From contig CAWVRN010000022.1 in the NCBI GenBank assembly GCA_963932905.1, positions 11,182 to 75,181 of the forward strand: a stretch of DNA of 64,000 bases. Reading direction: 5' to 3'. Numbering within the stretch: position 1 is the first letter of the stretch; each line of letters begins with the position of its first letter. Positions 943-21,457 of this stretch are shown here, in pieces. Position numbers and translations under genes: made by a program. Under the pieces are notes generated by a model. The model saw only the letters and a program-made list of their open reading frames with translations. It did not search any database and was not told the origin of the DNA. The stretch is from an uncultured Bdellovibrio sp. (GTDB lineage: Bacteria > Bdellovibrionota > Bdellovibrionia > Bdellovibrionales > Bdellovibrionaceae).

Positions 943-954
943 AGGAGAATTTAA

Positions 955-1805: not shown

Positions 1806-1811
1806 GAATGT

Positions 1812-2612: not shown

Positions 2613-2627
2613 AAGTCAGGAGTCAAA

Positions 2628-2921: not shown

Positions 2922-3059
2922 CATTAAGAGAGAACATTCTCAATCAGAAATGGAATATGAAAACGAAGTTTTAGATCTCTGGCACAAGTTGGCACGTCCA
3001 TGGCGCTCTGGACCCTGCTGCCTCCTGACCTCTACTTTTGGCACACTTTCAAAGCCCCG

Positions 3060-3130
3060 CCAGCAATACCACACCTCAATAAATTCAATTATCGCTGATT
3101 TCGCCTTGTACAGATGGGCAAATGTCATCA
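3060..3130 (-). mobile_element. Possible IS3-family transposase C-terminal remnant
   Basis: Minus strand reads TFAHLYKAKSAIIEFIEVWY, resembling the IS3 tail F..l.eA..aIfeyIevwYN; very short match. Confidence 0.4.
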
Positions 3131-3159
3131 ATTTTGGATGATGGGATTTTGACATCTAA

Positions 3160-3189
3160 AGAATGGGCTCAATTTCTTCAGCCCATTCT
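3160..3189. terminator. Stem-loop downstream of the kinase operon, possible terminator
   Basis: AGAATGGGCT (3160-3169) and AGCCCATTCT (3180-3189) form a perfect 10-bp inverted repeat; weak U tail. Confidence 0.5.
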
Positions 3190-3296
3190 GGTATTAGAAT
3201 TTTTCAAAAAGTAATTGCAGGCTTTTTATAAAAACGACATGAGATTTCTTAACAGCAGCCACTGACCATTCGGGCATGGCCGGTAGTTCAATGGAT

Positions 3297-4853
3297 CTAC
3301 CTAACAACCAAAGGCATATCGAGAATTTGGCTCTTAGGAATCAAATAAACCCCGTGACGGACGCATGCGGCTTGAACTTCGCTATTATCAAAATGGCCCG
3401 TAACCAAGCATCTAGTCGCGGTTGGTGGCGCTTTTTGAAGCCAGTCGAGACCGGTGTCATCCGCTCCCAAATCAAAGTCAAAAAGAAAGGTGCATAAGTT
3501 TGGTTGGATTTGAATATCTTGTTGCTCCGAGAGCAGTTCTTGTCCTTGGCTCATGAACTTAGTTCGTTTCAATAGATCGGTGTCGTGAAATTTTAATTTC
3601 CACAGCGCTCGGCCTGTTTCTTTATCGTCTAGAACATAAATTCGTGAATCTGCACTAAGTTTTAGTCTTGGTAAATACCATGCAGCCCTGTCCTTTGTCG
3701 GCAGTCGAATCCTAACCGTGGTTCCAATTCCAAGTACGGATTCCAACTTAACAGAACCGCCCCAAGCCTCAATATTTTCTTTGGCATGAGAAAGGCCAAT
3801 GCCTGATCCACTAATTTTGCCATGAGAAAAATTCTTCTCAAAAACATAAGGCACGTTTTTAGGATCAATTCCTTTTCCGTTATCAATTACTGAAATTTCA
3901 ACTTCACCACCGGCATCCTTAGCACGAACAACAATTTTTCCCGACAAATCAATCGCTTCAATAGAATTTGTTACTATGTTTCCCAAAATAGCTCGAAGCT
4001 CAACTGGGACATGTGACACTAATGTTGAGCAAATCATGTCGTCTACTTCATATTGAAAATCAATTGTTTTAGAAACATAAAGTGTAAGTTCTCGCTTTGC
4101 TTGCAATAAGGTGCTGTAAAGATCCGACTCGAATTCTTCTGACAGCTCGCCAATGGGTCTATCGTCAAGCTTTGCAATTAGCTCTTTAATCTGACTGATA
4201 GTGAGCTCTAAAAGTTCACGATCATTACCGACAGCCTCAGGTAATTTTTTTGGAATTCGCATTAGTGCGGCCAAGGGTGTGCGTAAGTTATGTCGCACTT
4301 GTTGAGCCACTTCACTTTTAGCAAGCTTTTTCTCGATTTCTAAATCTCGGTCAAACTGTTCAATTAACTTTCGCTTTAAAAAGCGCGTTTGTGGTATAGA
4401 CACTAGATTTAAAATCAGCCAAATTAGAAATGCGTAAGGAATTAAACGAAACCGTTCAAATTCAAAAACAATTTCATCTGTTGTTCCCGATGAAATAGAG
4501 CTCTGAATTGGTACACGAATAGAATCCCGGCTAGCTGTTTTCCAAAAACTTTGATCTTTAAAAACTTCTGCTTTAGGCGGAATCACGAACGATCTTCCAG
4601 GCTGAGTCGATTTATAGTGAATCGTAGTGAAGCTTGAGAGCCTGGCTTCTTGTAAAATCAAGGTTGCTTCTCTGAAATCCCCGATTTTAACCATCCTAGA
4701 TAAGAATCGAGTATTTTCCTCAGCTACTTTTTGCAAATGAAGCGCGTTGAAGACAACTGAAACTCCGCAAAAAATCAGAAGACATAGCCCCGAAATGATG
4801 TACTGCTTGCGTTCGAACGCTTTAATTTTATGCGCCGGTGTTTTATTATTCAT
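3297..4853 (-). CDS. Membrane hybrid sensor histidine kinase with a C-terminal receiver-like domain
   Basis: Two TM segments; H-box AQQVRHNLRTPL; N box NIVTNSIEA; DNGKGI and GSGIGL; C-terminal VLDD...FLFD...LVTG...IPK. Confidence 0.9.
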   Translation of the reverse strand: MNNKTPAHKIKAFERKQYIISGLCLLIFCGVSVVFNALHLQKVAEENTRFLSRMVKIGDFREATLILQEARLSSFTTIHYKSTQPGRSFVIPPKAEVFKDQSFWKTASRDSIRVPIQSSISSGTTDEIVFEFERFRLIPYAFLIWLILNLVSIPQTRFLKRKLIEQFDRDLEIEKKLAKSEVAQQVRHNLRTPLAALMRIPKKLPEAVGNDRELLELTISQIKELIAKLDDRPIGELSEEFESDLYSTLLQAKRELTLYVSKTIDFQYEVDDMICSTLVSHVPVELRAILGNIVTNSIEAIDLSGKIVVRAKDAGGEVEISVIDNGKGIDPKNVPYVFEKNFSHGKISGSGIGLSHAKENIEAWGGSVKLESVLGIGTTVRIRLPTKDRAAWYLPRLKLSADSRIYVLDDKETGRALWKLKFHDTDLLKRTKFMSQGQELLSEQQDIQIQPNLCTFLFDFDLGADDTGLDWLQKAPPTATRCLVTGHFDNSEVQAACVRHGVYLIPKSQILDMPLVVR

Positions 4854-5653
4854 TGGCCATCCGCCGTTTCTGCAACAAAACGAGCCGTCTGAATCGGCGC
4901 ACTTGATAGAATTGAAACTTGTGAATGATCGACGTGAACTCTTTTTAGCATCGGAATGTCAGTGCGGAAATCGTCTGCGTCAATGTCACAAACAAGCAGG
5001 GGTTCAATCTGAGATAAAAATTTTGAATCTATATGCCATGGGAGCTCTACATCAGACTTTTTGTTTTCATCGGTAAGCCATGCAAAATTTGGCAGAGCTT
5101 CCAATAACGATCGCTGAATACTTTTTTCTAAGGAATTCGACAAAGCAAATCCAAAAGCCGTGGCACCGCCAGAAGTGACCTTCATTGAACACACTAATCC
5201 GAATAGTTCTTGAGGCGTTTGCATTTTATAAAAACTTAATTCGGATTCGGGATTTAGATTTCTAAACTTTTTTGTATCGATGCTTTCAAGAAAAATTTGG
5301 TGAAATGGAATTTTTTCTTTAAGATGTTTTTTAAGATAAAATCGTTCCAAAGCCTCGTGACTGGCATGATCGATGGGATCATATGTGCTACCTATCGCAA
5401 ATCCAACGGAATCAAATCCCAAGCTTTTACAAATCAATCGCTCGATTGCCTCGGCAACGGATTTTTCAAGTGCAATTTCACGGCTAGAATCTACGCCTCG
5501 ACCTTTTGCCTCAGTACCATCCCAGGAAAGAGTCGTAGAAAAATCGTGTAACCCAGGAAGGATACGATTAGACCAGCTAAACTCTTTAAATCGAGGATTT
5601 AGCTCATGCCGTTTTGAATAAAGCCAAGCGGCTAGTGGAGTTTTATTCGCCAT
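4850..5653 (-). CDS. Minimal YcaO-like protein
   Basis: Three YcaO-type motifs in order: GRG..S...A..KSVAEAIER, DSVGFAIGST...HEALER, AFGFA......IQRSLLEA; only 267 aa. Confidence 0.65.
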   Translation of the reverse strand: MANKTPLAAWLYSKRHELNPRFKEFSWSNRILPGLHDFSTTLSWDGTEAKGRGVDSSREIALEKSVAEAIERLICKSLGFDSVGFAIGSTYDPIDHASHEALERFYLKKHLKEKIPFHQIFLESIDTKKFRNLNPESELSFYKMQTPQELFGLVCSMKVTSGGATAFGFALSNSLEKSIQRSLLEALPNFAWLTDENKKSDVELPWHIDSKFLSQIEPLLVCDIDADDFRTDIPMLKRVHVDHSQVSILSSAPIQTARFVAETADGQ

Positions 5654-7170
5654 AATTGATTATTCGCATAGAGTTCTGATAGTTCGATCTTCCAAGGTTT
5701 TCTAACTAAAGCCGCGTACGGTGATGCGATTAGCGGTACAATCGCAGGTTCAGATAATGCTTTATAATGAAGTTCCTTAAGCTTATTAATCCGTACTGCT
5801 TTATCATCAGTAGCCATGTAATCAGCTAGCCACGCCGAACGCTGCGACTTTGAAAGCCCCAAGAGTCCAGCATTTAATGAATACGAAATAAGACTAATGT
5901 CTTCCATAAATCCGGTGTCTCCTGATGCAAGCCACGCATGAGGAATATCTTCTTCATTTTCATATTTCTTAAATTCCGGCGAATTTGTTTCTTGGTAACA
6001 ATTAGCCATAGGAAGTGCCGTCTGGATCGGGTTCGCCCATTCTTCAATGGCAGAGCGCCGGATGAGTCCAAGTTTAAAATGCTTTTTCGGAGCAGTCATA
6101 TCTTGAGTGCTTACTTCGACGAGACGTTGCTGCTGCTGAACTGTCAGTCCACCTTCGCCAAGGCTTGGAAAAAACTCAGCTCTTTGCTCATAACCCGGAA
6201 TATTTTCATAAAGTTTTGCAAAGACGGCTTTCATCTTTTCGCCAATAAATCGTCTTTCACCAGCAGATAGTTCTTTTTGGCCTCGTTCAGTAAAAACGAG
6301 AAAAAGACTTCTGATTTTCATTGTTACGTGACTTTCAAAATCTGCATTATTTGCAGCAAAGCGAAGCGCCTCACTCACTTTGGTTGAGTCTACTGTGGTT
6401 AAATGATCAATCCGATTTTCTTTTAGAGCGGTAAGGCTTGAATTCATAACCGAAGTGTCCATGGGCACTAATACGATCTTGTCAGCGATCTCAGAAGACG
6501 CAAAATAATGATTCGGATTCAGCCTAAGTACGATGTTTCCATTTCCATCATCTTCTGACAGCGAATATGGACCACTTGTTTCAGAAAAATTCGTAATTTT
6601 TAGTGTTTTTGGATCAACGCTAGATTTTGGGATTATAGCAAAATCAATCGCTGAAAGCATTGGCAGCAAAAACGATTTTCTTCCCTTGGCTTCAAGGTAC
6701 ACATGCCCGTTGTCCTGTCGAATGCCAGGGCATGGGTCTTCAACTGATTTTAGCTCGACGCCAGGGCAAACAATATCTTTAAAATTCCCATGTGTATTGC
6801 CGGAAAGAATTAAAAGTCTTTTTAACGAAAAAATGACGTCATCAGCGGTGATAGGAGCACCGGAAATAGTTTTTAGACCCTTTCTGATGGTGAGTCGAAG
6901 CTCGTCACCGACCCAATCAACCTTTTCAGCAACACCAGGCTCGATGGACCCACTTTTTGAGATTTCAACGAGCGGCGAAAACACATTCTCTAAAAAAATA
7001 TACTCATAGTCCATACTGATGCTGGTCGGCTCATAAGTTGAGGCCTTCAGCTTAGCTGGAAAGGCCACTCGCAATGTTCGATCTTTATTTACATTTTTCA
7101 TAGAAAGCAGTCCTCCGACAACGAGCACAACAGCGGTCAATGTTAGCATTTTGATAGTAATATTCTTCAT
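5632..7170 (-). CDS. Family 5 (OppA/DppA-like) extracytoplasmic solute-binding protein
   Basis: N-terminal signal/anchor; VFSPLV...IEPGVAE, LTIRKG...SGAPITADDVIFSL, SGPY and LRLNPNHY motifs. Confidence 0.85.
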   Translation of the reverse strand: MKNITIKMLTLTAVVLVVGGLLSMKNVNKDRTLRVAFPAKLKASTYEPTSISMDYEYIFLENVFSPLVEISKSGSIEPGVAEKVDWVGDELRLTIRKGLKTISGAPITADDVIFSLKRLLILSGNTHGNFKDIVCPGVELKSVEDPCPGIRQDNGHVYLEAKGRKSFLLPMLSAIDFAIIPKSSVDPKTLKITNFSETSGPYSLSEDDGNGNIVLRLNPNHYFASSEIADKIVLVPMDTSVMNSSLTALKENRIDHLTTVDSTKVSEALRFAANNADFESHVTMKIRSLFLVFTERGQKELSAGERRFIGEKMKAVFAKLYENIPGYEQRAEFFPSLGEGGLTVQQQQRLVEVSTQDMTAPKKHFKLGLIRRSAIEEWANPIQTALPMANCYQETNSPEFKKYENEEDIPHAWLASGDTGFMEDISLISYSLNAGLLGLSKSQRSAWLADYMATDDKAVRINKLKELHYKALSEPAIVPLIASPYAALVRKPWKIELSELYANNQLWRIKLH

Positions 7171-7182
7171 ATAATTCTGACC

Positions 7183-7458
7183 TTAATATGGTCCTCCACC
7201 AAGACAAACCGTGTCGGGATCTGTTGTGCCACGGTCAATACGGCCTTCAGATTCAAGAACGCTTAGAATATCGTGATCAAATTGCACGCACTGGTTTTGG
7301 TTTGCTGTCAGGGTTTTAGTGCTACCTAAAATCCTAATCGCCCAGGCGATCTGCTGTTTTTGCAGCGGAGTCAACTTCTTGGCCTGATCTACATCAGCTA
7401 AAGCCGTGACGTTAATTCCCACCATCCCTGCGAAAATTGCTAAAATTGTTTTCTTCAT
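7183..7458 (-). CDS. Small secreted protein (91 aa), candidate signal precursor
   Basis: Sec-type signal MKKTILAIFAGMVGINVTALA; GAGGGGG SD; start overlaps the regulator stop; two Cys; ends TVCLGGGPY. Confidence 0.75.
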   Translation of the reverse strand: MKKTILAIFAGMVGINVTALADVDQAKKLTPLQKQQIAWAIRILGSTKTLTANQNQCVQFDHDILSVLESEGRIDRGTTDPDTVCLGGGPY

Positions 7459-8846
7459 AATTCATCCCCCTCTAATGTTTTTTGTTTGAGTTCAAATCCA
7501 TATTTTTTCATTTTTTCACGTACAGTACTCCGACTAAGACCTAGTATTCGGGCTGTAGCTGCTATCGATCCACCTTCTTCGATAGCTTTTAGAACAATTT
7601 TTTTCTCGGTGCTCATTTGACTCAGTTTAAGCATTTCTAAATCCGCAGGCTTTATTTTTATGTTAGAAATGTCGGCTCGTGTTTTTAATAAATCGGCATC
7701 CAGGTATTTTTCTGGCGAAAGGTTTACTAAAAATCGAATGCAATGCTCTAGTTCACGCACATTGCCTGGCCAACTTAGTTTTTTAAGTTCCTCAGCAGTA
7801 GATTCTAGAAGAATTTTATTTTCTCCTGACTCTGCATTGGCTTTTTTTAAAAAAGCTTGCGCCAGAATAAGAATATCTTCTGGCCGTTCTCTGAGCGGCT
7901 TGACATTAATAGGAAGGACATTGAGCCTAAAGAACAAATCCTCACGAAAAGATTTTTCTGCAATCAGTTTTTCTAACGGAGCATTGGTCGCTGCAATTAG
8001 TCTGAAATCTATTTTTTTACTTTCATTTGAACCCACAGGAGTAATTGTTTTTTCTTGAAGAACACGCAGTAAAGTGGCCTGCAAATGTTTCGGCATTTCG
8101 CCGATCTCATCTAAAAAAATCGACCCGCCGCTAGCACTTTCAAAATGGCCTTTTCGGCTGCGAGCGGCTCCAGTGAAGGCGCCTTTTTCATGACCAAAGA
8201 GTTCACTTTCAATTAAATTTTCTGGAATAGCAGCGCAATTGACAGCAACAAATGGCATTCTGTTTCTTGGCGAAAGATTGTGTATGGCGCGGGCCACTTT
8301 TTCTTTTCCCGTTCCATTTTCGCCACGAATCAAGACCGAATCATTTGCTGGTGCAAATTTTTGAATGAGCCTTGCTACATCAGCCATTGATTCTGAAACT
8401 CCAATCATGCCAACCGATGAAATTAATTTTTGATTGTCTGTGTGTGTAGAAATTAACAGCGGTTTTTCACGACGTTCGACTTCACGACAGGCGCGATGCA
8501 AAATCCCCAGCAGCTTTGCTTCGCCGATATCTTTTTCAACAAAGAAAACTGCACCAGAGTTTAAAGATTTATTGTGCGCATCGATAGAATCATCACCAGA
8601 CAAAGCCAGGACAGTAAGCTTAGGTTCAATCTGTTTGAGTTTTTGAATAGTCTCAGGGCCTTGGATTTCTGGCATATGGTAATCAACTAGGGCTAAAGAA
8701 AATGATGCTACCCTTTGACGAATAAGTGCGATGGCCTCATCACCGGTAGACACAGCACGAACAAAGAAGCCTTCATCGTTTAAAAACGAAGTCATTGAAC
8801 GCCGAAATGCCAGATCATCATCTACGAGTAGGATGTTGTGCTTCAA
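7455..8846 (-). CDS. Sigma54-dependent NtrC/AtoC-family response regulator (REC-AAA+-Fis HTH)
   Basis: LLVDDD, LVDYHMP, GENGTGKE, ESELFGHEKGAFTGA, FLDEIGE, WPGNVRELE and a C-terminal HTH; TTG start. Confidence 0.95.
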   Translation of the reverse strand: MKHNILLVDDDLAFRRSMTSFLNDEGFFVRAVSTGDEAIALIRQRVASFSLALVDYHMPEIQGPETIQKLKQIEPKLTVLALSGDDSIDAHNKSLNSGAVFFVEKDIGEAKLLGILHRACREVERREKPLLISTHTDNQKLISSVGMIGVSESMADVARLIQKFAPANDSVLIRGENGTGKEKVARAIHNLSPRNRMPFVAVNCAAIPENLIESELFGHEKGAFTGAARSRKGHFESASGGSIFLDEIGEMPKHLQATLLRVLQEKTITPVGSNESKKIDFRLIAATNAPLEKLIAEKSFREDLFFRLNVLPINVKPLRERPEDILILAQAFLKKANAESGENKILLESTAEELKKLSWPGNVRELEHCIRFLVNLSPEKYLDADLLKTRADISNIKIKPADLEMLKLSQMSTEKKIVLKAIEEGGSIAATARILGLSRSTVREKMKKYGFELKQKTLEGDEL

Positions 8847-8883: not shown

Positions 8884-8900
8884 TACAAATATAGTGCCCA
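8884..8900 (-). promoter_or_regulatory. Candidate sigma54 (-24/-12) promoter of the regulator operon
   Basis: Minus strand TGGGCACTATATTTGTA versus consensus TGGCAC-N5-TTGCW; GT in place of GC at -12. Confidence 0.55.
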
Positions 8901-9068: not shown

Positions 9069-9384
9069 TGGCGGTTGTCCGCCAGGGGAACCTCCATAGG
9101 ATTCGCATAATTCGCCAAGCGATGTTGCTCGCTTGATTGGCCCCGTTCAAATTGGAATAGTATTTGCGATTAGTACCAACACAGCACACGTTAAGAGCAA
9201 ATTTTTTATTCAATTTAAACGATAGGGATTCAATAACATTAATCTGATGGCTAAAGCTTAGTAGTCCGCGGCTTCACCTGGCGATAATCTTGCCGCCACT
9301 GGTGGATAGCCGCCACCCTCATCATTTTTCTAAATCTTTGAATTGCTTTCTAATTTCCAAAACAGGGGTGGCGAATAACCGCCA
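9069..9384. promoter_or_regulatory. Three palindromic operator/enhancer sites, consensus TGGCGG-N4-CCGCCA
   Basis: TGGCGGttgtCCGCCA 9069-9084; TGGTGGatagCCGCCA 9300-9315; TGGCGAataaCCGCCA 9369-9384. Confidence 0.7.
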
Positions 9385-9551
9385 CCTATTTTCATAAAGC
9401 ATTTTTCTGCTTCGTTCATTTTTTTCATTCTTATCATTTACTTAACTGTTTTGGCTTCTCATTAAAATTTGTTGTTGTCGTTCTTGCTCCTTAGATCACC
9501 TCAATGGCTGTCGTAGTGGCGGCTTCTAACACAAACAAAGGAGGTGCATCT

Positions 9552-9758
9552 ATGAATGCAAAACAAAATAGAGAGCAAACAAAACATCGGACACAGCTAA
9601 ATCTAGCGCTGATCACGTTAGAAAAAGCTGAGCCGCGCTCAATCTGGCAAAAAATCAAATCAGTGCTTTCAACATCTGATTTAGATTTTGAAAATTGGCA
9701 GCGACTGGAGTCAAAAAAATTTAAACATGGTTTCTCCGACCAGAGGAGGAATCAATAA
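9552..9758 (+). CDS. Hypothetical protein, first gene of the transfer operon
   Basis: Strong AAGGAGGTG SD before ATG 9552; coupled to the next gene. Confidence 0.65.
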   Translation: MNAKQNREQTKHRTQLNLALITLEKAEPRSIWQKIKSVLSTSDLDFENWQRLESKKFKHGFSDQRRNQ

Positions 9759-10009
9759 TGTCCCGTACATTAAAAGATAAAAGACCTATTTATCGCCGTG
9801 ATGATGAACCCATTTACAAAACTCATGAGGAACCTGTTTTAAAACGACGATTTCTTAACTTCAGAAAATCAGGACCACGCCTGGACGGAGAAGAGTGTCC
9901 AGAATGTGGCGGGCTTACACACTTTCAAAGTGGTTATCTAACTTGCTGTGAGTGCGGCTGGACAGAAGATGTAGTTGATATGTGTGATTTGGAAAGGTTC
10001 GCCGTATGA
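9758..10009 (+). CDS. Small zinc-ribbon protein
   Basis: CPECGG...CCECGW; GGAGG SD; overlapping start and stop codons on both sides. Confidence 0.7.
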   Translation: MSRTLKDKRPIYRRDDEPIYKTHEEPVLKRRFLNFRKSGPRLDGEECPECGGLTHFQSGYLTCCECGWTEDVVDMCDLERFAV

Positions 10010-10419
10010 GTAAGCGAGCAGATTTTCCTTTTAGCAACGTAATTCCCATCAGAAAAACAGATCACTTTGGCGTATACACCGGCGATGTGCTTCCAAGCGG
10101 TGAAGTTATTGAAGGAGAAAGTGTTGGAATTGCTTTTTTAAAACAAGGCAGCAAGAAATTTCGTCTTAAACTCTTTGTTTATCCGAACAATAGCTACTTC
10201 GTCGTTCCCGACGACAAAGACGACGCCAAGTACATCGTTCTAAGCCTAGAGGAATACCAGCTTTCCGGGGGCGAAACACGTTCGCATTGGAACCGGATCG
10301 GCGAAGGAAAACTTACCGGAAGCTTTATCGCGCTTCGACTACAGCTCATTCCGGAGCCGCTATTCCTGTGTCTATTTCCAGAAAAAAATATCGCCGAGGA
10401 GGACGCAATTGCATCTTAA
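10006..10419 (+). CDS. Hypothetical protein
   Basis: 137-aa ORF with ATGA coupling inside the operon. Confidence 0.65.
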   Translation: MSKRADFPFSNVIPIRKTDHFGVYTGDVLPSGEVIEGESVGIAFLKQGSKKFRLKLFVYPNNSYFVVPDDKDDAKYIVLSLEEYQLSGGETRSHWNRIGEGKLTGSFIALRLQLIPEPLFLCLFPEKNIAEEDAIAS

Positions 10420-10456
10420 TCAATTTACTCAAAACAAAAATATAGGAGGTGAAAAT

Positions 10457-10741
10457 ATGAATCGAAAACAATTCTTTTTCTATGCCGTACTCACAGCTAT
10501 GATCTTTATCGTTCCAGAGATTGGCCTAGCGAGTGTGGAATCTTCGCTTATGGGGATTCAAACAAAGCTCACGCGAGTAATTCTACCGTCGCTCTCGATC
10601 TGCGCCATTGCCTGGGCTGCATTTTCAATGATGTCCGGCAATGACAAATCAAAAACGCATCTTTGGTATGCGATTATTGCAACGATTGTGGGCTTCGGGG
10701 CGGAATCCATCGTTAATTTTATATCAACGACGGTGCGCTAA
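10457..10741 (+). CDS. TrbC/VirB2-like conjugative pilin
   Basis: GGAGGTG SD; leader ending PEIGLA followed by two hydrophobic helices; sits before VirB3/VirB4-like genes. Confidence 0.75.
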   Translation: MNRKQFFFYAVLTAMIFIVPEIGLASVESSLMGIQTKLTRVILPSLSICAIAWAAFSMMSGNDKSKTHLWYAIIATIVGFGAESIVNFISTTVR

Positions 10742-11064
10742 TGAGTAACGAATCAATTCTAACTTCGACCGTGCCACGCACGCTAGAAACAAAAAACAAA
10801 ATTTTAGGATTGGAACTTTCAGACGTTCTTGTCCTTCTTCTTAACCTTTCAGCGCAAAACCTAGTTTTTGGGTCAACAAGTTTTAAAATTCCGATGGTGT
10901 TTGGAACAAGTTTATTTCTTGGGCTAACTCTTTTCTTTTTCAAAAAAGGAAAGCCCGATCACTACCTTCAACACTTCGTTGAGCATTTCATTTCACCAAC
11001 GGTTTTCGCGGCGAACGCAATTGATCTTCAATACCGCAGATTTAACAAAGGGGGTAAGTTATGA
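10741..11064 (+). CDS. VirB3-like membrane protein
   Basis: VPRTL...KILGLE..D plus two TM segments, directly upstream of the VirB4 ATPase. Confidence 0.7.
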   Translation: MSNESILTSTVPRTLETKNKILGLELSDVLVLLLNLSAQNLVFGSTSFKIPMVFGTSLFLGLTLFFFKKGKPDHYLQHFVEHFISPTVFAANAIDLQYRRFNKGGKL

Positions 11065-13523
11065 TTGAAGCTGCATTGTGTGAACAACTTCCATTTTGGG
11101 AATTTGAACAAAACCCGATTCCTCATGCCATTTTATCGGACGGCTCTATTTCGGCTGGTATCGAGCTTTTGCCACTAGATATTGAATGCTTTGATGAATC
11201 CAGAATCAATCAACTGACATTAGGATTAAGAGCGTTTACCAACTCGCTACCAGAAGGAACCACGGCGCAATTTTTAGTAAAGGTTGAATCTGACATTGAA
11301 GAAGTTCTTAAAAAACACTGTGACTTAGTTTCTACTGAAAATGAATTTTTAAAACACCTTGACGAAAAGCGATCACTACACTTATTCGATCAAATTCAGT
11401 CAGAATCTATTTTTCGACCAAGGCTTTTCTTTTTCCTAAGAACGTCTGGTGTTCAAAAGCCCAAGGCGCTTTCTTTCGGTAAAACTAAAACATTTTCAAT
11501 GGAATTTGAAAAAAGTCATGAAGATCGGATTCAGACTCTAGGTCAGGCCATTGAAGGTGCGTCTGGCCTTCTTTCATCACTTGGGTTTACGACAACTCGC
11601 TGCGAGCGAGAGGATCTTATTCAAATCCTTTACAGCTATTTTAACCCTAAACGATCCAAGGAAATCGAAAAGCCGCATGTTTCAATAAAATCAACCGATT
11701 TAGACGACATTTCCCCAAGGGCACAAATTGTGTTTGGCGATCTGATTCTTGATCGTGAAGATTTTATTTTAGATCAGCGTCGGACTAGAGTCCTCACTTT
11801 AAAAACGCTTCCTGAAATGACTTTCGGTGGAATGATGAGCTCTTTTCTGGCTTTGCCATTTAAATATGAACTAATTTTTTCGTTTCGTATCCAGGACCAA
11901 GCGAGTGAGATAAAAGTATTAGAAAGTAAACGCCGTATGGCACATTCGCTTTCCAGCACAGCAAGCAATAGAGTCTCAGATTTGGAGAGCGAATCAAGGC
12001 TTTCACAAACGACTGATCTTCTACGTGAGCTGATCGAAACTGGTCAGCGCATTTACCAAGCTGAAATGATAGTGATTCTTCGTGAATCAGCAAGTATCGA
12101 AGGTGAAAAGAAATTAAACTTACGAACGAAAGAAGTTTTGTCGCGGTTTAAAACCTTAAGTGGCTCTGAAGGAATTCAAGAAACCGTCGGTGCTTGGAAA
12201 ACATTTAAATCAGATTTACCTTTGGCCCCGCTAAGTCTTGTACGCGCGAAAGCCATGAAGACAAACAATCTTGTTGATTTTCTTCCGCTCTACGGAGCTG
12301 CCACAGGTGACGATAATCCGGTTTGTTTAACAAAGACTCGGCTCGGAACACTGTATTCTTATGATCCCTATTCATCTCGTCTTAGCAACTACAATGTGCT
12401 TACGACAGGTTCTAGCGGATCAGGAAAAAGCTTTGCAAATAATTTTTTGATGCTTCAGCAGATCGCGCGCGGCAGCAGACTATATGTGATCGACATTGGT
12501 GGATCATACAAAAAGATGACCGAGGTTTTAGGTGGCCAGTATTTTGAGATCAATCTTTCTGGCACATACGTCATTAATCCTTTTGAATTGTTAAATCCAG
12601 CCGAACCTCCAAGTGGAGATCGCCTTAAAGGCTTTGTCAGCATCATCGAGCAAATGGTCGTCGATCAGGGTGAAAAATTAAACCGTTTTGATCGAGTTCA
12701 GCTAGAGGCGGCATTGACGGCAGTGTTTGAAAAAGCCCGGAAAGAATCCAAACCTCGCTCGCCTTTACTCACGGATCTTGCAAAACATTGCCTGAACGAT
12801 TCTGAAGAAAGTTTAAAACGAATTGGAAAGCTTCTTTTCCCGTGGGTTGGTAAAACTCCCTATGGAAAATTGCTTGATGGCGAGGGAAAAATTGCAGTTG
12901 ATAAATCTGTCGTAGCCTTCGACCTGAAAGGACTTTCGCAGTACCCGGATCTTCAATCAGTGATGATTCTGATTTTGACAAACTTCATTTTAGAGCAAGT
13001 CGAAACTAATCGCACAGTTCCAAAGCGCGTTTTATTAGATGAGGCCTGGGAGCTTTTAAAAAGTCCAGCAGCAAGTTCTTTTATGGAATATGCCGCACGC
13101 ACGTTTCGTAAAACTGGAAGCGGAATCACATTCATTACCCAAGGCGTGGAAGAGATTATTGCAAGCGGAATGGGGCCAGCGATTTTAAATAACACGGCCA
13201 CAAAACTTGTAATGCTCCAAAAGGGCGACACGAATGTTCTGCGCGAAGCTTTAAAGCTCAATTCACAAGAGCTTAGGCTTATTCAAAGCTTAGAGCAAAG
13301 AAAAGGACTATTTAGTGAAGGCTTTTTAATGGAGGGTGAAAGCCGTCAGATTATCCGAATTGAACCATCACCACTGGAATATTGGATTTCGACTTCTGAT
13401 GCTCGTGATAATCAGTTTTTAAATCAATTGCGTGATAAGGGCCACTCGCTTGAGTCAGCTTTATTGAAAGCGGCAGAGCTTGCGCCATTCGGAGTTTCTT
13501 CCATGAAGGCGGTGGCCGCATGA
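11061..13523 (+). CDS. virB4: VirB4/TraC-family conjugative ATPase
   Basis: 820 aa; Walker A GSSGSGKS, VIDIGGSY, INPF, LLDEAW, RTFRK, ITQ. Confidence 0.92.
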   Translation: MIEAALCEQLPFWEFEQNPIPHAILSDGSISAGIELLPLDIECFDESRINQLTLGLRAFTNSLPEGTTAQFLVKVESDIEEVLKKHCDLVSTENEFLKHLDEKRSLHLFDQIQSESIFRPRLFFFLRTSGVQKPKALSFGKTKTFSMEFEKSHEDRIQTLGQAIEGASGLLSSLGFTTTRCEREDLIQILYSYFNPKRSKEIEKPHVSIKSTDLDDISPRAQIVFGDLILDREDFILDQRRTRVLTLKTLPEMTFGGMMSSFLALPFKYELIFSFRIQDQASEIKVLESKRRMAHSLSSTASNRVSDLESESRLSQTTDLLRELIETGQRIYQAEMIVILRESASIEGEKKLNLRTKEVLSRFKTLSGSEGIQETVGAWKTFKSDLPLAPLSLVRAKAMKTNNLVDFLPLYGAATGDDNPVCLTKTRLGTLYSYDPYSSRLSNYNVLTTGSSGSGKSFANNFLMLQQIARGSRLYVIDIGGSYKKMTEVLGGQYFEINLSGTYVINPFELLNPAEPPSGDRLKGFVSIIEQMVVDQGEKLNRFDRVQLEAALTAVFEKARKESKPRSPLLTDLAKHCLNDSEESLKRIGKLLFPWVGKTPYGKLLDGEGKIAVDKSVVAFDLKGLSQYPDLQSVMILILTNFILEQVETNRTVPKRVLLDEAWELLKSPAASSFMEYAARTFRKTGSGITFITQGVEEIIASGMGPAILNNTATKLVMLQKGDTNVLREALKLNSQELRLIQSLEQRKGLFSEGFLMEGESRQIIRIEPSPLEYWISTSDARDNQFLNQLRDKGHSLESALLKAAELAPFGVSSMKAVAA

Positions 13524-14221
13524 AAAAGAAATTTGTCGCAATTTCGTTGTGCTTTTCCATGATGCTTTCCCCAAGGGCCGCGAAAGCGGACCTCTTTGGC
13601 GGAGATGTTGCCGTTCTTCTTCAAATTCTTGCGCAGGCCATTCAAACCGTTACGACACTTCAAAGCGTTTTAGAAAACGGCAAAGATTCCCTTAATCTTA
13701 TGCGCGATCTAAATGCTGGGATTAGAAGTGGTATTGATGTCATTCGTATCATCAATCCTAACTTCAATCCAGGTGTCTATGGGGATTTAAAAGATGCTGA
13801 TCGTGTGCTTGCTGCGATTGAAGCTGTCTATGGAATTGTACCAAAAGGCATGGACGAAGACCTTATGCGTTCGCAAGATCAAAGCGTTTCTGAAGTTATC
13901 GCTATGAATCGTAATCTTTACGACTACGCCGATCAAGTGGACCTCGAGCGTGACAAAATTATTTATCACGCTCAAGTCGTTAGCCCCCAAGGGGCTGGCA
14001 AGCTTCAAAACCAAGCTTTAGGCGTTCTAATCGGGGTCACTACGCAGCTTCTTCGCACGCAAAGTCAAATGCTCAAACTCATGGCGCAAAACATGGCCTA
14101 TGACACGCGACAGGAAAAGCTATCAACACAGAACTTTCAGGAAAACTATCAGGGGCTCTCGAAAGGGTTTGAAAGTTTACCGAAAGACACAAAGCTTCCG
14201 CGCTTAGGTGGTGGCAAATGA
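13520..14221 (+). CDS. VirB5/TrbJ-like exported protein
   Basis: Signal peptide ending AKA; helical Q/L-rich sequence; lies between VirB4 and a VirB6-like gene. Confidence 0.55.
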   Translation: MKKKFVAISLCFSMMLSPRAAKADLFGGDVAVLLQILAQAIQTVTTLQSVLENGKDSLNLMRDLNAGIRSGIDVIRIINPNFNPGVYGDLKDADRVLAAIEAVYGIVPKGMDEDLMRSQDQSVSEVIAMNRNLYDYADQVDLERDKIIYHAQVVSPQGAGKLQNQALGVLIGVTTQLLRTQSQMLKLMAQNMAYDTRQEKLSTQNFQENYQGLSKGFESLPKDTKLPRLGGGK

Positions 14222-15093
14222 TGCCAAATCTTGAAGTGCTCGGAACTTTAGTGCGCGAGCTGTACCAAGGGTTAAGCCAGCTTTTCTATCTGATGTTGCC
14301 TGTTGCGATTTTATTTTCAGTGGTCTTTGGCTTTTTGAAGTCAGGTGATCCAAATTATCCAGACATTCTGAAGCGGGCTTTTGTTGCAGCACTTCTTATT
14401 GTTTCATTTCCTGAAGTTTCAAATCTTATTCTGGATGTTTGTGATGGTATAGCTTCAAAAATTGACGATATGTCGGGCCTTGAAGCTTTTATGAAGATTG
14501 CGCAAGAGAAATCACTTGGATATGCCGCCGCCAAGAAAATTCTGCTGCTAAAATTCGATGGCTTTTTTATGGCGATTTTAAGTTTTGCAAGCTTTGCTCT
14601 ACTCTATATCGCAAAGTATTTGACGGTTGTTCTTTACTATTTTTATTGGGGACTTTTGTCGATTGCAGCACCTCTGATGATTCTTTGCTATATGTTTCCA
14701 GCAACAGCCAACATCACTGTGAATCTCTACAAGGGTCTAATTGAAGTTGCGTCATGGAAAATTATCTGGGCGATTTTATCGGCCATGCTGAAATCAATTT
14801 CGTTTGGATTCATCTATGAAAATGAGCAATCCTATCTGCCACTTGTAGCCATGAATTTTATTATTGCTATCGCTCTACTTTTTACTCCAAGGATTTTGAA
14901 ATCATTAATTGGTGAAGGTGTTCAATCAACAGCAGCAAATATCGGAGCAACAGCCGTTTCGGGTGTAATGACTGCTATCACGCCAGCGGCAAAATTAGCA
15001 CAAGGAGCAAAGCTTTCGCAAGTCATCATGCCGCGAGCGTGGAGTGTTCCTAATCAAAAATTCAAACCAACAACAACAAACAAACGACCTTAA
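14218..15093 (+). CDS. VirB6/TrbL-like polytopic membrane protein
   Basis: About 6 TM segments, APLMI motif, A/G-rich tail; gene order. Confidence 0.65.
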   Translation: MMPNLEVLGTLVRELYQGLSQLFYLMLPVAILFSVVFGFLKSGDPNYPDILKRAFVAALLIVSFPEVSNLILDVCDGIASKIDDMSGLEAFMKIAQEKSLGYAAAKKILLLKFDGFFMAILSFASFALLYIAKYLTVVLYYFYWGLLSIAAPLMILCYMFPATANITVNLYKGLIEVASWKIIWAILSAMLKSISFGFIYENEQSYLPLVAMNFIIAIALLFTPRILKSLIGEGVQSTAANIGATAVSGVMTAITPAAKLAQGAKLSQVIMPRAWSVPNQKFKPTTTNKRP

Positions 15094-15113
15094 CGGTCAA
15101 AGGAGGTATTTTT

Positions 15114-15704
15114 ATGAAAGATAAAATTTCAATCCAACTTAGTTCATACCCAAAAGCCATGCGAGAATTTGCCGAAGAAAATTTAAATATCAAATTTCTT
15201 CTAAGCGCATTGCTTGCGGTTACATTTTTAATGCTGATTTTAGTGCTTTACCTTACTAAGCAAGGCCCAAAGGTGATCGCACTTGAAAGTAGTGGCGCAA
15301 TCGCTACGATTGAAACCAAAGTCACCGATGCGCAAATTGAATCGGCTGCGAAAGAGTACATTCGTCACCGCTATTCATGGAATGAGCAAACTATTTCCGA
15401 AGAGCTATCAAAAGCAAAATTTTTTGTTTTGCCGTCGCTAGCCTCAGCGTTTGAACGCTCGATGCAAGAGACAATGAAGTTCGTTCGAGAAAAGAAAGTT
15501 CGACAGCGTGTTTATCCAAAGACCATCACAGTTGATCTAAAAGAAAAACGAATTAGTGTTTTAGCGGATCGAATTACAGAGTTTGATAACCTGAAGGCTG
15601 CAACCGAGCTTAGGCTTTCTCTTCAGTTCACAATTGATGATCGAACTGTCATTAATCCGTGGGGTGTGTATGTAACAAAAGAAACTGAGGAGGCTACACT
15701 ATGA
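15114..15704 (+). CDS. VirB8/TrbF-like protein
   Basis: Single N-terminal TM and the C-terminal RTVINPWGVYV signature. Confidence 0.75.
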   Translation: MKDKISIQLSSYPKAMREFAEENLNIKFLLSALLAVTFLMLILVLYLTKQGPKVIALESSGAIATIETKVTDAQIESAAKEYIRHRYSWNEQTISEELSKAKFFVLPSLASAFERSMQETMKFVREKKVRQRVYPKTITVDLKEKRISVLADRITEFDNLKAATELRLSLQFTIDDRTVINPWGVYVTKETEEATL

Positions 15705-16414
15705 GGTTGTATATAATTTCTTTCGTTTTTTCGATTTTTATTACAACAACCGCAAGTATTGCTCAGATCCGAAAAACACACGCCAAAGAAGACGACATCC
15801 TTACAGTTAAAACGGCTTTGGGGATTGCAACGCTCTTGCAACTTCCAGAATCCATTCAATCAGCGATTATTGGTGATCTATCAGGGTTTAAAATCGAGTA
15901 TCTTGAAAAAGCAGTAACGATCAAGCCCCTTCGCTTCGGTGCAAAGACTAATTTGTATCTGGTAACGGGATCTCGGCGCTATAATCTTAGGCTGGTAACT
16001 GGAACTCAAGAGCTAGCTGATTATATCGTGTACTTAAAGAAACCAGAAACACCAAAGCCTGAAACGAAGTGGCGTAATTTTTCTAAATCAGCCACGCAAA
16101 AAAATTTGAAACTTTCAGTTGTTCGAATCGGACAGACGCCAAGTGGATTCATCTTGATGGATGCAATTCTAACTTCGACTCAAGTTCAGCGAATAACAGT
16201 TCGGCCTGAATCTATTTGGATTAAGCAGGCTGGAAACTCAAAAGTCATAAATAGTCTTTTTATGTCCGATTCTAAGGTCGAAAAAGATAAAGCGCTACGG
16301 ATCGGTCTATCGCTAGCTAAGTCTGATTTAGCAGCTGGAAAGCCCATAACAATTGAGGTCAATTCAGAGCAATCTATATCCCTTCAAATCTTGGAGGCTG
16401 AATTATGGAAGTAA
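15701..16414 (+). CDS. VirB9/TrbG-like outer-membrane core protein
   Basis: Signal peptide; TALGIATLLQLP, IKP and KTNLYLVT..RRYNLRL motifs. Confidence 0.75.
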   Translation: MRLYIISFVFSIFITTTASIAQIRKTHAKEDDILTVKTALGIATLLQLPESIQSAIIGDLSGFKIEYLEKAVTIKPLRFGAKTNLYLVTGSRRYNLRLVTGTQELADYIVYLKKPETPKPETKWRNFSKSATQKNLKLSVVRIGQTPSGFILMDAILTSTQVQRITVRPESIWIKQAGNSKVINSLFMSDSKVEKDKALRIGLSLAKSDLAAGKPITIEVNSEQSISLQILEAELWK

Positions 16415-17364
16415 AAAATAAACTCTCCGTTATTAGAGACAAGCTTAAAACATTAAAAAATGGACTAAAAACTTCTGTCATCCAAGAAAATGCATTCAGT
16501 AAAAAATTTGATCTGAATATCAAGACCATAAAACTTTTAGCGATCTTTGGCGTAGTAGTTTTCGTCACCGTTGTATTTATGATTCCAACGGACGTTCCTA
16601 TCGAATTTACGGAAAAGATTGAACGCTCGGATGAAAAGAAACCTGATTCTAACAACTCGCAAAATGCATTGCAAAACCAACAATCAGCTCAAGCGCTATG
16701 GGCAGCACCCAGGGTTTCGATTCCGGGTGGATCAGCAGGAAACCCGGTCAATTACAATACATCAATGATCGTTGGTTCAAAACTCGGTAACGCAAAGACC
16801 GAGCTGCGCTCTGGAATTCGCGTGGCTTTAAGACTTATGGATAAGGTCATAGTTTCTCAAGACCCTGTTCCAATCTTGGCAGAGTCTATCCTTGATTCGG
16901 TTTCTGACTCTGGGTTAAGGCTTCCAGCTGGAACAAAATTCTACGGACAAGCGAGCTTTCAAAAAGGATCTGATCGTGCGCAAATTCGCTTCGATCAAAT
17001 TTCTTTAGCCAGCGGACAAATCAAACGCATTTCAGCATTTGCGCTAGATAAATCAGGACAGGCAGGCATTTCGGGAAAAGTTTTTTCAGATGGAATGAAA
17101 AACGCAACTGGCCAAGTACTTACAACCTTTGTTGGGGGACTTGCCGCAGGAAGCATGCAAACCGATATTAAGGGAAATTCCAAAGGCGGCATTGAAAATG
17201 GACTACTCGGTGCGGTCGCTGCAACTGCACAGACTCGTGCGCAAAACTACGGCGAAAAATTAAAAACCGAAAGAGAATGGATCGAATTAAACCCAGGCAC
17301 CGAGTGTGATGCGGTTTTAAATGATGCTTTCAAATTACAAGAAGGAGGTGAAAATTATGAGTAA
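16405..17364 (+). CDS. VirB10/TrbI-like core protein
   Basis: One TM, low-complexity linker, LPAGTKFYG, DRAQIRF and D.SGQAGI.G motifs. Confidence 0.8.
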   Translation: MEVKNKLSVIRDKLKTLKNGLKTSVIQENAFSKKFDLNIKTIKLLAIFGVVVFVTVVFMIPTDVPIEFTEKIERSDEKKPDSNNSQNALQNQQSAQALWAAPRVSIPGGSAGNPVNYNTSMIVGSKLGNAKTELRSGIRVALRLMDKVIVSQDPVPILAESILDSVSDSGLRLPAGTKFYGQASFQKGSDRAQIRFDQISLASGQIKRISAFALDKSGQAGISGKVFSDGMKNATGQVLTTFVGGLAAGSMQTDIKGNSKGGIENGLLGAVAATAQTRAQNYGEKLKTEREWIELNPGTECDAVLNDAFKLQEGGENYE

Positions 17365-19006
17365 TCAAAAATCAGACATGTCAGATCGTGGTTTTTTAAT
17401 TCTAACCACGGCGCTTGGAGCCGGAATTCTTTGGCTTAAGTATAAACTGCAAATTGTTACGTTTATCGTTAATTGGCGCATAGCAATTGCTTTTACGATT
17501 TCTCTCGGCGCTGTATTTGGTTTTCAATTGCTTCGCAAAAAGCTCAGAGCTAAGAATAAAGATTTAGACTTAGAGAATGAAATTGTGACACCAATAGATG
17601 ACGAAGACGCCGTCTATGCAGGACTTTCAGTTAATGGCAAAAATATCTATGTGAAACAACCATTCAGAAGAATGCACACGCAAGTAGTCGGCACGACAAA
17701 CGCTGGAAAAACTGAATCGGTTATTTTGCCTTGGGCCATTGACGACATTAAAAAACGTCGAGGGCTTTTAATCATTGATGGTAAATCCGACATGAGTCTT
17801 TTAAATAAGCTCTATGCTTATGCCAAAAGACATCATCGTGAAAACGACATTAGAATTTTATCACTTTGTAATGTCGCAATCAGCCACTCTTTTAATCCCT
17901 TAAGCGGAGGCTCAGCACTTGAAATAACAGAGCGCGTTTTTAACGCCTTTAACTTTGAAAATGAATACTTTAAAAGTATTCAGTATGACGTTTTTCTTCA
18001 TTCGTTGCTGATTCTAGAAGCTGTCGGTGTTAAACCGACGCCCTTAAGAATGATCGAATGCATGAAAAATGAAAAAGCTTTAGCAGATCTTGCCATTGCT
18101 TCAAAAAAGCCCCGACTTCAAGTTTGGGCCGGAGAATATCTAAAACTAAACCGTGAAGAGCGAGAGCAAAGAACAAGCGGCCTTGTGGCTCAACTTCAAA
18201 GTTTTGCGGTGGGCGAAACGGCACAGGTGTTTAATACAGAAATTTCAGACATCAACCTTGAGCAAGCGTTAGAGCATAGCGAAATCATTTATTGCCAGCT
18301 TCCAGCTTTGAAAATTCCAACGCTCGGAAAAGCGACTGGCAAAATGATTCTTCAGTGCTTACAAAGCGCGGTATCATCAAGGCACCTTGGGAAATATAAT
18401 AACCAGAGCTTCTTTTCAGTTTACCTTGATGATTTTACAGAATACCTGACGCCAAGTTTTGTGACGCTATTAAATAAATCTCGAAGTGCCAATGTTGGGA
18501 TCGTTTTTGCGCATCAGGCTCTCGGCGATCTTGATGGTCTGGGTGATGGGGTAAAGAACACCATTCTTACAAACTCGAATCTTAAAGTTTTTATGCGTAC
18601 CAATGAACCCGAATCTGCCGAATATTTTTCATCAGTTATTGGCACGATTCAAGGATCAAAAGTAACTGAACGGCAAACTAAAAGTCTTTTCGGAAGTGAA
18701 AAAACTGGTGATGGTTCTATTCGTGAAGTCGAAGAGTTTAAATATCATCCAAATGTCTTTAAGCAGGAGCTTGGCATCGGTGAAGCCGTGATGATTATTC
18801 CTCATGCTCAAGGCAGTCTTCCGATTCGGTTGAAATTCAAAAAATCTTTTGATCTAGATGCGCCTCAAGTTCCGCTCATTCAAAAACCAGAGCCGACGGG
18901 CCTTCCAAAACTTGAAAGCTCAGCTCCGGCGAATCAGCCGCAGACACCCTTGCGTGCTCGTGCGGATGTGATGACGGAGCTAACCCAAGAAAGGAAGGCG
19001 GTATGA
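17357..19006 (+). CDS. VirD4/TraD-like type IV coupling protein
   Basis: Two N-terminal TMs; HTQVVGTTNAGKT, LIIDGK, FNPL, YLDDF, KSRSA, AHQ; GGAGGTG SD before ATG 17357. Confidence 0.88.
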   Translation: MSNQKSDMSDRGFLILTTALGAGILWLKYKLQIVTFIVNWRIAIAFTISLGAVFGFQLLRKKLRAKNKDLDLENEIVTPIDDEDAVYAGLSVNGKNIYVKQPFRRMHTQVVGTTNAGKTESVILPWAIDDIKKRRGLLIIDGKSDMSLLNKLYAYAKRHHRENDIRILSLCNVAISHSFNPLSGGSALEITERVFNAFNFENEYFKSIQYDVFLHSLLILEAVGVKPTPLRMIECMKNEKALADLAIASKKPRLQVWAGEYLKLNREEREQRTSGLVAQLQSFAVGETAQVFNTEISDINLEQALEHSEIIYCQLPALKIPTLGKATGKMILQCLQSAVSSRHLGKYNNQSFFSVYLDDFTEYLTPSFVTLLNKSRSANVGIVFAHQALGDLDGLGDGVKNTILTNSNLKVFMRTNEPESAEYFSSVIGTIQGSKVTERQTKSLFGSEKTGDGSIREVEEFKYHPNVFKQELGIGEAVMIIPHAQGSLPIRLKFKKSFDLDAPQVPLIQKPEPTGLPKLESSAPANQPQTPLRARADVMTELTQERKAV

Positions 19007-20108: not shown

Positions 20109-20140
20109 TGACTTTCCAAAGTAAATTCAACATGATCGCG

Positions 20141-20530: not shown

Positions 20531-20595
20531 TATCAGCACGATCAAGCTACAACCAAAACAGAAAATTCAAATCACAAACCAAAGGAGGTGCCATT

Positions 20596-21260: not shown

Positions 21261-21457
21261 CTGCGGGGCGAAAACCAAATCCCTTTTACATCGTAGATTC
21301 AAGCCTTCCAGTGAACCTAATCCCGACGCCGGAATCATCTGATGAGTTCCAAAAGCGTCGCGAAGAAGTGCAAGACATGATTGTCCGAATTCTTCTCACG
21401 GGAAAGAAACGCGGTCGTCCATCTAAGAAGGAGGAAAACATTGAAAACGCAGCTTAA
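21257..21457 (+). CDS. Small basic protein with an AT-hook-like motif
   Basis: ATGA coupling to the XRE gene; KKRGRPSKK; overlaps the recombinase start. Confidence 0.6.
   Translation: MTAGRKPNPFYIVDSSLPVNLIPTPESSDEFQKRREEVQDMIVRILLTGKKRGRPSKKEENIENAA

Follow-up and report, generated by a model that had tools for sequence, protein, structure and literature searches.

A conserved small protein with a near-invariant C-terminal cysteine in a candidate sensory cassette of Bdellovibrio-like bacteria

The small gene and its five-gene cassette

The minus strand of a 64,000-nucleotide stretch of DNA from an uncultured Bdellovibrio sp. (assembly GCA_963932905.1, contig CAWVRN010000022.1, positions 11,182 to 75,181; hereafter the window) carries a tightly packed operon, the second gene of which is a small open reading frame (ORF) of 91 amino acids with an ATG start (7183..7458, minus strand, from the ORF listing and its translation). 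An earlier note on this DNA had proposed this ORF as the precursor of a pheromone or of a ribosomally synthesised and post-translationally modified peptide (RiPP), lying between a regulator and a binding protein, and its location was correctly described. On one side is the gene for a sigma54 response regulator (7455..8846, minus strand) with REC, Sigma54_activat (AAA+; E 9e-71) and HTH_8 (Fis-type helix-turn-helix) domains, and on the other is that for an orphan substrate-binding protein (SBP) of the SBP_bac_5 family (peptide/nickel type, E 1.5e-12; 5632..7170, minus strand) with an N-terminal hydrophobic anchor. These are followed by the genes for a 267-amino-acid protein without a signal peptide, modelled as a minimal YcaO fold and here called mini-YcaO (4850..5653, minus strand), and for a sensor histidine kinase with an HATPase_c domain (E 2e-21), an H-box and two transmembrane segments (3297..4853, minus strand). 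The start of the small ORF and the stop of the regulator gene share 4 nt (ATGA, 7455-7458), an arrangement that indicates translational coupling of the two genes, and a purine-rich, Shine-Dalgarno-like GAGGGGGA lies ~8 nt 5' of the small ORF start. The mini-YcaO gene has 22 nt in common with the SBP gene and 4 nt with the kinase gene, and no ABC permease or ATPase genes were found in the cassette or its flanks. The C-terminal ~130 amino acids of the kinase (window 3297-3700), which follow HATPase_c, have no Pfam match and resemble a degenerate receiver domain.

On comparative grounds 7183..7458 is a genuine conserved gene and not a chance ORF, because a word-indexed search returned 31 homologues of 79-97 amino acids at 57-100% identity, the mean column identity of the close-relative alignment (A1) is 74%, and all six of the differences listed within 7183-7458 among related metagenome contigs fall at third codon positions. 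The features that the earlier note had read from the translation, a Sec-type signal peptide, a mature part of ~70 amino acids, two cysteines and a short polar tail, were all present. The N-terminus has two lysines and a hydrophobic core followed by an A-L-A|D site, giving a signal peptide of residues 1-21 (nt 7396-7458, minus strand) and a mature protein of 70 amino acids (residues 22-91) with cysteines at C57 and C85, the codon for the latter lying at 7204-7206 (minus strand). Crude criteria for a Sec signal peptide (K/R within residues 2-8, a hydrophobic 10-mer and small residues at -1 and -3) were passed by all 100 family members scored, a count that leaves out one product of frameshift (P0155) and one N-truncated sequence (P0029) and scores one over-long ORF from an internal start; export of the small protein by Sec is accordingly predicted across the family. 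Searches of Pfam and NCBIfam with the small protein gave nothing meaningful (best match TMP_4, E 0.065), and none of the 31 members matched a Pfam family. The AlphaFold2 (AF2) model is of low confidence (predicted local distance difference test, pLDDT, 50.9) and consists of helices plus two short strands that carry both cysteines, while the ESM Atlas held no hit at >=0.9 and no structural match with a template modelling score (TM) >0.4.

The synteny of the cassette is conserved. By tblastn, all nine loci fetched from relatives and paralogues have the same five-gene order, and the 4-nt overlap of small gene and regulator is seen in nine of ten loci when the window is counted. A search for related loci with a single peptide pattern from the mini-YcaO alignment gave 13 loci. 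Across 301 genomes of the phylum, profile matches to mini-YcaO occurred in 39 and to the small protein in 10; the 20 small-protein rows represent 17 distinct genes, 16 of which have a mini-YcaO match no more than ~2.4 kb away on their contig, the remaining one being in a 300-contig assembly where the YcaO match is at a contig edge. Among 18 further loci the mini-YcaO gene is adjoined by an SBP gene in 17, and a kinase gene is present in 16 and a sigma54 regulator gene in 11. The family hidden Markov model finds the small protein in nine of these 18, and each of the other nine has a neighbouring signal-peptide ORF of 59-171 amino acids, eight of them ending in the cysteine motif described below and one with serine instead. 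One of these nine loci (L066) has no SBP, and there a 130-amino-acid exported ORF with a terminal cysteine motif follows the kinase. Named matches came from Bdellovibrionaceae, Pseudobdellovibrio, Oligoflexia and Bdellovibrionota metagenome-assembled genomes, with one contig binned as Chlamydiae, and 1.84 billion cluster representatives, searched exhaustively by profile, yielded only 48 small-protein clusters at E <= 0.001 (85-155 amino acids, four of them tandem duplications). We take the small protein to be a dedicated component of a sensory cassette that appears specific to Bdellovibrio-like bacteria, and no description of this five-gene cassette was found in the literature searched.

Four paralogous cassettes are present in this genome (contigs C22, C1, C30 and C56), each with its own small protein. 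Those at C30:~500-6230 (L061) and C56:~500-5520 (L062) are near-identical and lie equally far from the starts of their contigs, which may reflect a recent duplication or an assembly-breaking repeat; their small proteins are one-cysteine forms of 94 amino acids. A 1775-nt metatranscriptome contig, ~93% identical to the window, spans the 3' part of the regulator gene, the small ORF and the 5' part of the SBP gene (6638-8390), which hints weakly that these three genes are transcribed together in a relative, from one RNA run, a small share of words and with possible DNA carry-over. Drinking-water and freshwater metagenome DNA runs contained at least half of the stretch's sampled words as near-identical contigs.

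The C-terminal cysteine and the mini-YcaO protein

A C-terminal cysteine, usually within the motif [S/T]-[I/V]-C, was found in 99 of 102 unique small proteins, and in two intact exceptions the hallmark position is held by serine (L071) or threonine (P0140) in an ungapped alignment made by eye. Only five columns reach 90% or more in the wider family alignment (A3, 44 sequences), namely A40, L44, L68, G72 and C85, with C57 falling below. Counting cysteines in the mature part of 100 proteins gave two or more in 80, one in 18 and none in 2, so the first cysteine (C57) is dispensable, and the hallmark reads from these alignments as a nucleophilic residue with a hydrophobic predecessor, not as a glycine-rich tail. 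Tandem-duplicated small proteins of 136-160 amino acids (P0160, P0163, P0166 and P0167; L074:8058-8540) have two N-terminal helix-plus-cysteine units and a single C-terminal cysteine motif. The suggestion in the earlier note that threonine and cysteine residues of the tail might be YcaO sites was therefore upheld in part, as the C-terminal cysteine is near-invariant and replaced only by serine or threonine, all three being residues on which YcaO cyclodehydratases act, whereas the threonine residues of the tail are not conserved.

The same alignments did not bear out the idea that the tail is the core of a signal. Column identity in A1 is 0.89 for the helix at 28-47, 0.86 for 57-72 and 0.80 for 82-87, and it falls to 0.68 for the segment 73-81 before the cysteine (0.38 in A3). 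The stretch after the cysteine is the least conserved part of the protein (the last four residues, 0.43 in A1; 0.18 in A3) and varies in length from 1 to 46 residues, several proteins ending one residue after the cysteine. A conserved leader with a variable core, the pattern sought among syntenic small ORFs, was absent; close relatives conserve the whole mature protein, as would be expected of a folded domain.

This conservation suits a different role, in which the small protein is an unmodified periplasmic modulator, a small helical domain closed by a C57-C85 disulfide, that tunes the SBP/kinase sensor directly in the manner of CpxP-CpxA or ZraP-ZraSR, with mini-YcaO acting elsewhere (on the kinase, the regulator or the SBP precursor) or serving as a non-catalytic, ATP-binding partner of the kinase. 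We hold this to be the main rival of the reading favoured below and a real possibility, if on the doubtful side. Besides the conserved mature part, with its strong helix 28-47, it is consistent with the two or more cysteines of 80/100 members and with the AF2 model, in which strands 56-59 and 83-86 are placed so as to allow pairing of C57 with C85 (pLDDT 51). The mini-YcaO and kinase genes, which overlap, also stay together even in the SBP-less locus L066, and the parts of two published accounts consulted here describe YcaOs that modify whole proteins (PMC13063428, PMC5589413). The CpxP/Spy/ZraP (LTXXQ) family likewise consists of small periplasmic helical proteins encoded with a two-component system, ZraPSR being a sigma54 system, and helix 1 of the small protein opens with a 10-residue LTxxQ+QQ(I/M)-like motif that recalls this family. 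Homology to CpxP or ZraP was nevertheless rejected at profile level, the likeness being limited to this motif: comparison of A3 by hhalign gave probabilities of 0.18% for E. coli CpxP and 5.3% for ZraP, no Pfam match was seen in the 31 members, the small protein is half the size of LTXXQ proteins, and the C-terminal cysteine hallmark is absent from that family. The modulator role also leaves several features of the family poorly accounted for, in that the first cysteine is absent from 18/100 members that keep the C-terminal one, both cysteine-less members have serine or threonine at the hallmark, which a structural disulfide does not explain, and distant cassettes whose small ORFs have an unrecognisable or very short N-terminal body (59-63 amino acids) still keep the C-terminal cysteine motif; the fold model on which the strand pairing depends is moreover poor. 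The caution in the earlier note that the two cysteines might simply form a disulfide thus agrees with most members of the family, but the one-cysteine members and the serine and threonine replacements indicate that a structural disulfide cannot account for everything.

The earlier note had invoked a YcaO enzyme, and structural comparison agreed that a YcaO-fold protein is encoded in the cassette. An AF2 model of mini-YcaO built on 32 family sequences (pLDDT 91.1, predicted template modelling score 0.88) gave top Foldseek matches in the Protein Data Bank (PDB) that are all YcaO proteins, beginning with 6ci7_A (E 3e-9) and continuing with M. jannaschii YcaO, LynD, E. coli YcaO and McbD. By VIA-align it matched 6cib_E at Z 16.6 (root mean square deviation 3.8 A over 238 residues), and 14 YcaO entries lay at Z 11-16.6 with the next unrelated rows at Z <=7, so that the modelled 267-residue protein has a YcaO fold. 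The identification comes from fold comparison only, as sequence methods fail: a single-sequence phmmer search of the PDB gave 0 hits, TIGR03604 (SagD) matched at E 0.03 only, and a precomputed PF02624 match exists for one of 102 family members. The only match of the family profile in the PDB, to a glycerol dehydrogenase (E 0.89), was discarded as chance.

Residues G51-R52-G53, E68, E71, E100, E103, R104 and E185 are invariant in the 32 mini-YcaO sequences and R72 is nearly so. By eye, the GRG...ExxER of mini-YcaO resembles G60-K61-G62...E75xxE78-R79 of E. coli YcaO, where the numbers of the ATP-site residues agree with the sequence. Alignment by hhalign against E. coli YcaO, at a probability of only 1.6%, placed E100/E103/R104 on E199/E202/R203; for the first and third ATP motifs the match was made only by eye. 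According to the part of the literature consulted, every YcaO has three ATP-binding motifs (PMC8120280). Mini-YcaO, with its conserved acidic motifs, shares with known YcaO systems (McbD of microcin B17, LynD/TruD, the archaeal thioamidation YcaO that acts on McrA, and E. coli YcaO) the fold, at Z 15-16.6, together with a candidate cysteine site (serine or threonine in the exceptions). It differs from them in size (267 amino acids against ~360-750), in giving no PF02624 hit and in having no E1-like or RiPP recognition element (RRE), TfuA or dehydrogenase partner, and the candidate substrate differs from known ones in having a Sec signal peptide, a single site and no hypervariable core.

A promoter-like element, a palindrome and the type IV secretion island

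The regulator start is preceded, at a distance of 38 nt, by a sigma54-type promoter-like element, GGCAC-N5-TTGTA (8884..8899, minus strand). The pattern GGCAC-N5-TTG[TC] was found upstream of the regulator in nine of ten close loci, and variants were seen by eye in the tenth and in several distant loci. A scan of the whole window with the sigma54 consensus, allowing two or fewer mismatches, gave 36 matches against 31.8 expected and is uninformative alone; the element at 8884-8899 is credible because it is conserved across loci. Further upstream, 223 nt before the regulator start, is a palindrome, TGGCG-N6-CGCCA (9069..9084, unstranded), and a second copy (9369..9384, unstranded) precedes a divergent operon for a type IV secretion system (T4SS). 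In eight of the ten close loci the palindrome precedes the regulator start by 207-223 nt, and it is also found upstream of the T4SS operon, usually paired ~70 nt apart. It occurs twice in the window against 0.05 expected, and the 4.55-Mb genome holds six sites, four of which are next to the cassettes on C22 and C1 (those of C1 at G000:C1:537253-537340), with none for a reversed-pattern control. We consider TGGCG-N6-CGCCA a candidate operator or enhancer (upstream activating sequence, UAS) for the sigma54 activator. The remaining two genomic copies, one on C10 inside a 534-amino-acid ORF and one on C18 in a 27-nt gap between co-directional ORFs, are probably unrelated. An imperfect third copy was noted in the window near 9300.

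The divergent operon (9504..19006, plus strand) is conjugation-like and encodes a TrbC/VirB2 pilin, VirB4/TraC, VirB8, VirB9/CagX, VirB10/TrbI and a VirD4/TraG-type coupling protein. After it comes a gene for a large serine recombinase with Resolvase, Recombinase and Zn_ribbon_recom domains (21381..23156, plus strand), which is probably the integrase end of an island, and the region 9504-23156 has the look of an integrative mobile element. None of the ORFs at 19293-21457 that lack an assignment was recognisable as a relaxase gene, and the base composition of the island is not distinct (GC 0.40-0.445 throughout). T4SS homologues flank the cassette in 9/27 other loci, usually directly 3' of the kinase gene and on the same strand, and the T4SS operon is context and a likely output of the cassette, outside the cassette proper. 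At the cassette's outer edge, the match of a 97-amino-acid ORF (2628-2921) to Pyr_redox_2 is confined to the 76 N-terminal positions of the model; the ORF resembles a truncated gene of sulfide:quinone-oxidoreductase type and may be a scar of island insertion. Elsewhere in the window lie a periplasmic HtrA/DegP-type protease gene (23306-24853) and an aerotolerance-type Bat operon (26220-33840; MoxR AAA ATPase, DUF58, BatA/BatB-like VWA, TPR and BatD).

The linkage to T4SS genes, in the window and at these other loci, is what would be expected if the small protein were a classical short-peptide pheromone, as the earlier note would have it, its cleaved C-terminal tail diffusing between cells and being bound by the OppA-like SBP for quorum control of the transfer genes of a mobile element. 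Conjugation in Enterococcus (pCF10) and Bacillus (ICEBs1) is under the control of peptide signals that OppA-family proteins bind or import, the SBP_bac_5 protein could serve as the receptor, and the operon architecture looks autoregulatory. PrgZ/cCF10 of pCF10, RapI-PhrI of ICEBs1 and AgrD/AgrB presumably share with the present locus a secreted, gene-encoded signal, an OppA-family binding protein and transfer genes on a mobile element, and AgrD has a conserved cysteine near its C-terminus followed by a dispensable tail, as does the small protein. We nevertheless think a pheromone of this kind very improbable. The cassette contains no protease, cleavage motif or exporter; the cysteine is penultimate in several members (TICF, TICL and VICY ends), and the segment 73-81 before it is the weakly conserved one. 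The pockets of OppA-type proteins take peptides whose N-terminus is free. The Gram-negative arrangement here would use a periplasmic SBP-kinase route in place of uptake to a receptor in the cytoplasm; nothing resembling AgrB or Rap is present, and the mature species is probably the protein of ~70 amino acids.

On the other side of the cassette, to its left in the window, are sulfur-oxidation genes, and these bear on a reading of the small protein as a periplasmic thiol or metal sensor, whose C-terminal cysteine, free or YcaO-derived, would bind metal or react with an oxidant or persulfide, the SBP reading its state. A single conserved cysteine is unusual in an exported protein and has no evident fixed disulfide partner: the only invariant cysteines of the SBP, C135 and C147, are spaced 12 residues apart and are likely to be bonded to one another, and the periplasmic part of the kinase (~100 amino acids between the two transmembrane segments) has no cysteine, so that a fixed partner for a mixed disulfide is not evident either. 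The SBP family also holds nickel-binding proteins, NikA-type models give weak matches to this SBP, and the bufferins, small exported proteins with modified cysteines, are described as metal-binding in the part of the account consulted (PMC11626156). Such a sensor nonetheless seems to us improbable, as sulfur genes were found beside 0/27 other loci in contrast to the T4SS genes at nine of them, the small proteins have no histidine- or cysteine-rich metal motifs, the NikA matches are far below cut-offs, and replacement of the cysteine by serine or threonine would abolish thiol chemistry.

A possible bufferin-like signalling route

The reading that we favour, though we would give it somewhat less than an even chance, is that the small protein is a bufferin-like, YcaO-modified and Sec-exported mini-protein sensed by the SBP-kinase pair; among mechanisms that give each conserved part a role, it is the most economical. 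Mini-YcaO, which has no signal peptide and would therefore be cytoplasmic, would activate the backbone, at the expense of ATP, at the residue just before the C-terminal cysteine of [S/T]-[I/V]-C, forming a thiazoline or a derivative of it at this cysteine before export. Sec would then export the modified protein in the bufferin fashion with removal of the signal peptide, and the orphan SBP would recognise the essentially intact modified protein in the periplasm, not a short cleaved tail, and pass the signal via the kinase to the sigma54 activator. The activator would drive its own operon through the sigma54 promoter and upstream palindrome, creating positive feedback, and would probably also drive the adjacent T4SS operon, which has the same palindrome. 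Export itself, protein modification, SBP binding, regulatory targets and feedback are steps that we infer. In its most elaborate form, as a new kind of bacterial signal, self-inducing, in which the YcaO-converted C-terminal cysteine, Sec export and an OppA-like SBP-kinase-sigma54 readout switch on the T4SS genes of the island, with the paralogous cassettes acting as private channels, the proposal is unlikely.

The earlier note had remarked that a cytoplasmic YcaO would need to act before Sec export, and for this order of events there is published precedent in the bufferins, small proteins bearing Sec signals whose cysteines are heterocyclised in the cytoplasm (PMC11626156). In the part of that account consulted, the bufferin systems (BufA1/BufA2, the MNIO BufB and its DUF2063 partner BufC) are like the cassette in having a mature protein of ~60-70 amino acids after a Sec peptide, a key conserved cysteine and an enzyme gene beside that of the precursor, with no dedicated exporter or leader protease described, and the bufferin product stays a small periplasmic protein, as we suppose it does here. 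The enzymes differ, that of the bufferins being an MNIO/DUF692 protein with a DUF2063 partner and that of the cassette a minimal YcaO; only one cysteine is conserved in the small protein, and its operon encodes an SBP, a kinase and a sigma54 regulator in place of metal-stress genes. A Pfam scan of the five cassette proteins found no MNIO (DUF692), DUF2063, DUF2282 or BUF_6/12Cys domain. Recognition of a structured protein by a YcaO also has a parallel, in that an azoline-forming YcaO is described, in the part of the work consulted, as recognising a structured long leader by protein-protein contacts (PMC12455567).

For the sensing steps, the SBP-dependent kinases AgtS and AruS of P. aeruginosa are comparable, having an orphan SBP gene beside the kinase gene and, in the part of the account consulted, no transporter genes, as here (PMC11113362). 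LuxP-LuxQ and TorT-TorS are likewise SBP-dependent kinase systems with such an SBP-kinase pairing. These systems sense external small molecules, and none is known to have a co-encoded exported mini-protein or YcaO.

A number of observations weigh against the bufferin-like route. The fit of most family members, and of the strand pairing in the AF2 model, to an ordinary disulfide is one, since C85 could not be heterocyclised if it were bonded to C57, and the domain-like conservation of the mature protein is another. Mini-YcaO has no hit to Pfam YcaO (PF02624) at E <= 0.1 and the Pfam model had no match anywhere in the genome, and equivalence of its motifs to those of characterised enzymes depends on the fold and a short local alignment because of the low hhalign probability and this lack of a Pfam match. 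It is at least ~100 residues shorter than characterised YcaOs and is not known to have the C-terminal proline-rich motif that is typical of them. No E1-like or RRE partner is encoded in the cassette, TfuA (PF07812) had 0 matches in the genome, and for the SagB-type dehydrogenase (TIGR03605) the genome gave only a 17-bit match, below cut-off. As regards a RiPP-type architecture, neither a processing protease nor a dedicated exporter was found in the cassette or its flanks. Co-occurrence of the YcaO with the small gene is no stronger than that of the SBP or kinase, which means that the YcaO could act on another protein. A complex prediction for SBP residues 27-512 (A4) with small-protein residues 22-91 (A3) scored 0.01 against a mark of 0.32, the small protein's own fold being uncertain, and this result counts neither for nor against the route. 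The palindrome at 9369..9384 also scores as a terminator-like hairpin and no canonical sigma54 promoter was recognised before the T4SS genes, so the regulatory link between cassette and T4SS is one that we infer.

Among the features described here, the sigma54 regulator as a fifth cassette member with a conserved promoter is new, as are the shared palindrome, the linkage to the T4SS and its island, and the family-wide census of cysteine, serine and threonine at the hallmark position. Even on a conservative reading, a conserved and uncharacterised five-gene sensory unit has been named and given a candidate operator sequence. If the bufferin-like route is true, YcaO would be a second enzyme class for RiPP-like products that leave the cytoplasm via the general Sec pathway, mini-YcaO would be the smallest working YcaO known and useful in enzymology and engineering, and a modified protein would be the ligand of an SBP-kinase sensor. 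The cassette would then also provide a first handle on the control of T4SS-bearing mobile elements in predatory bacteria.

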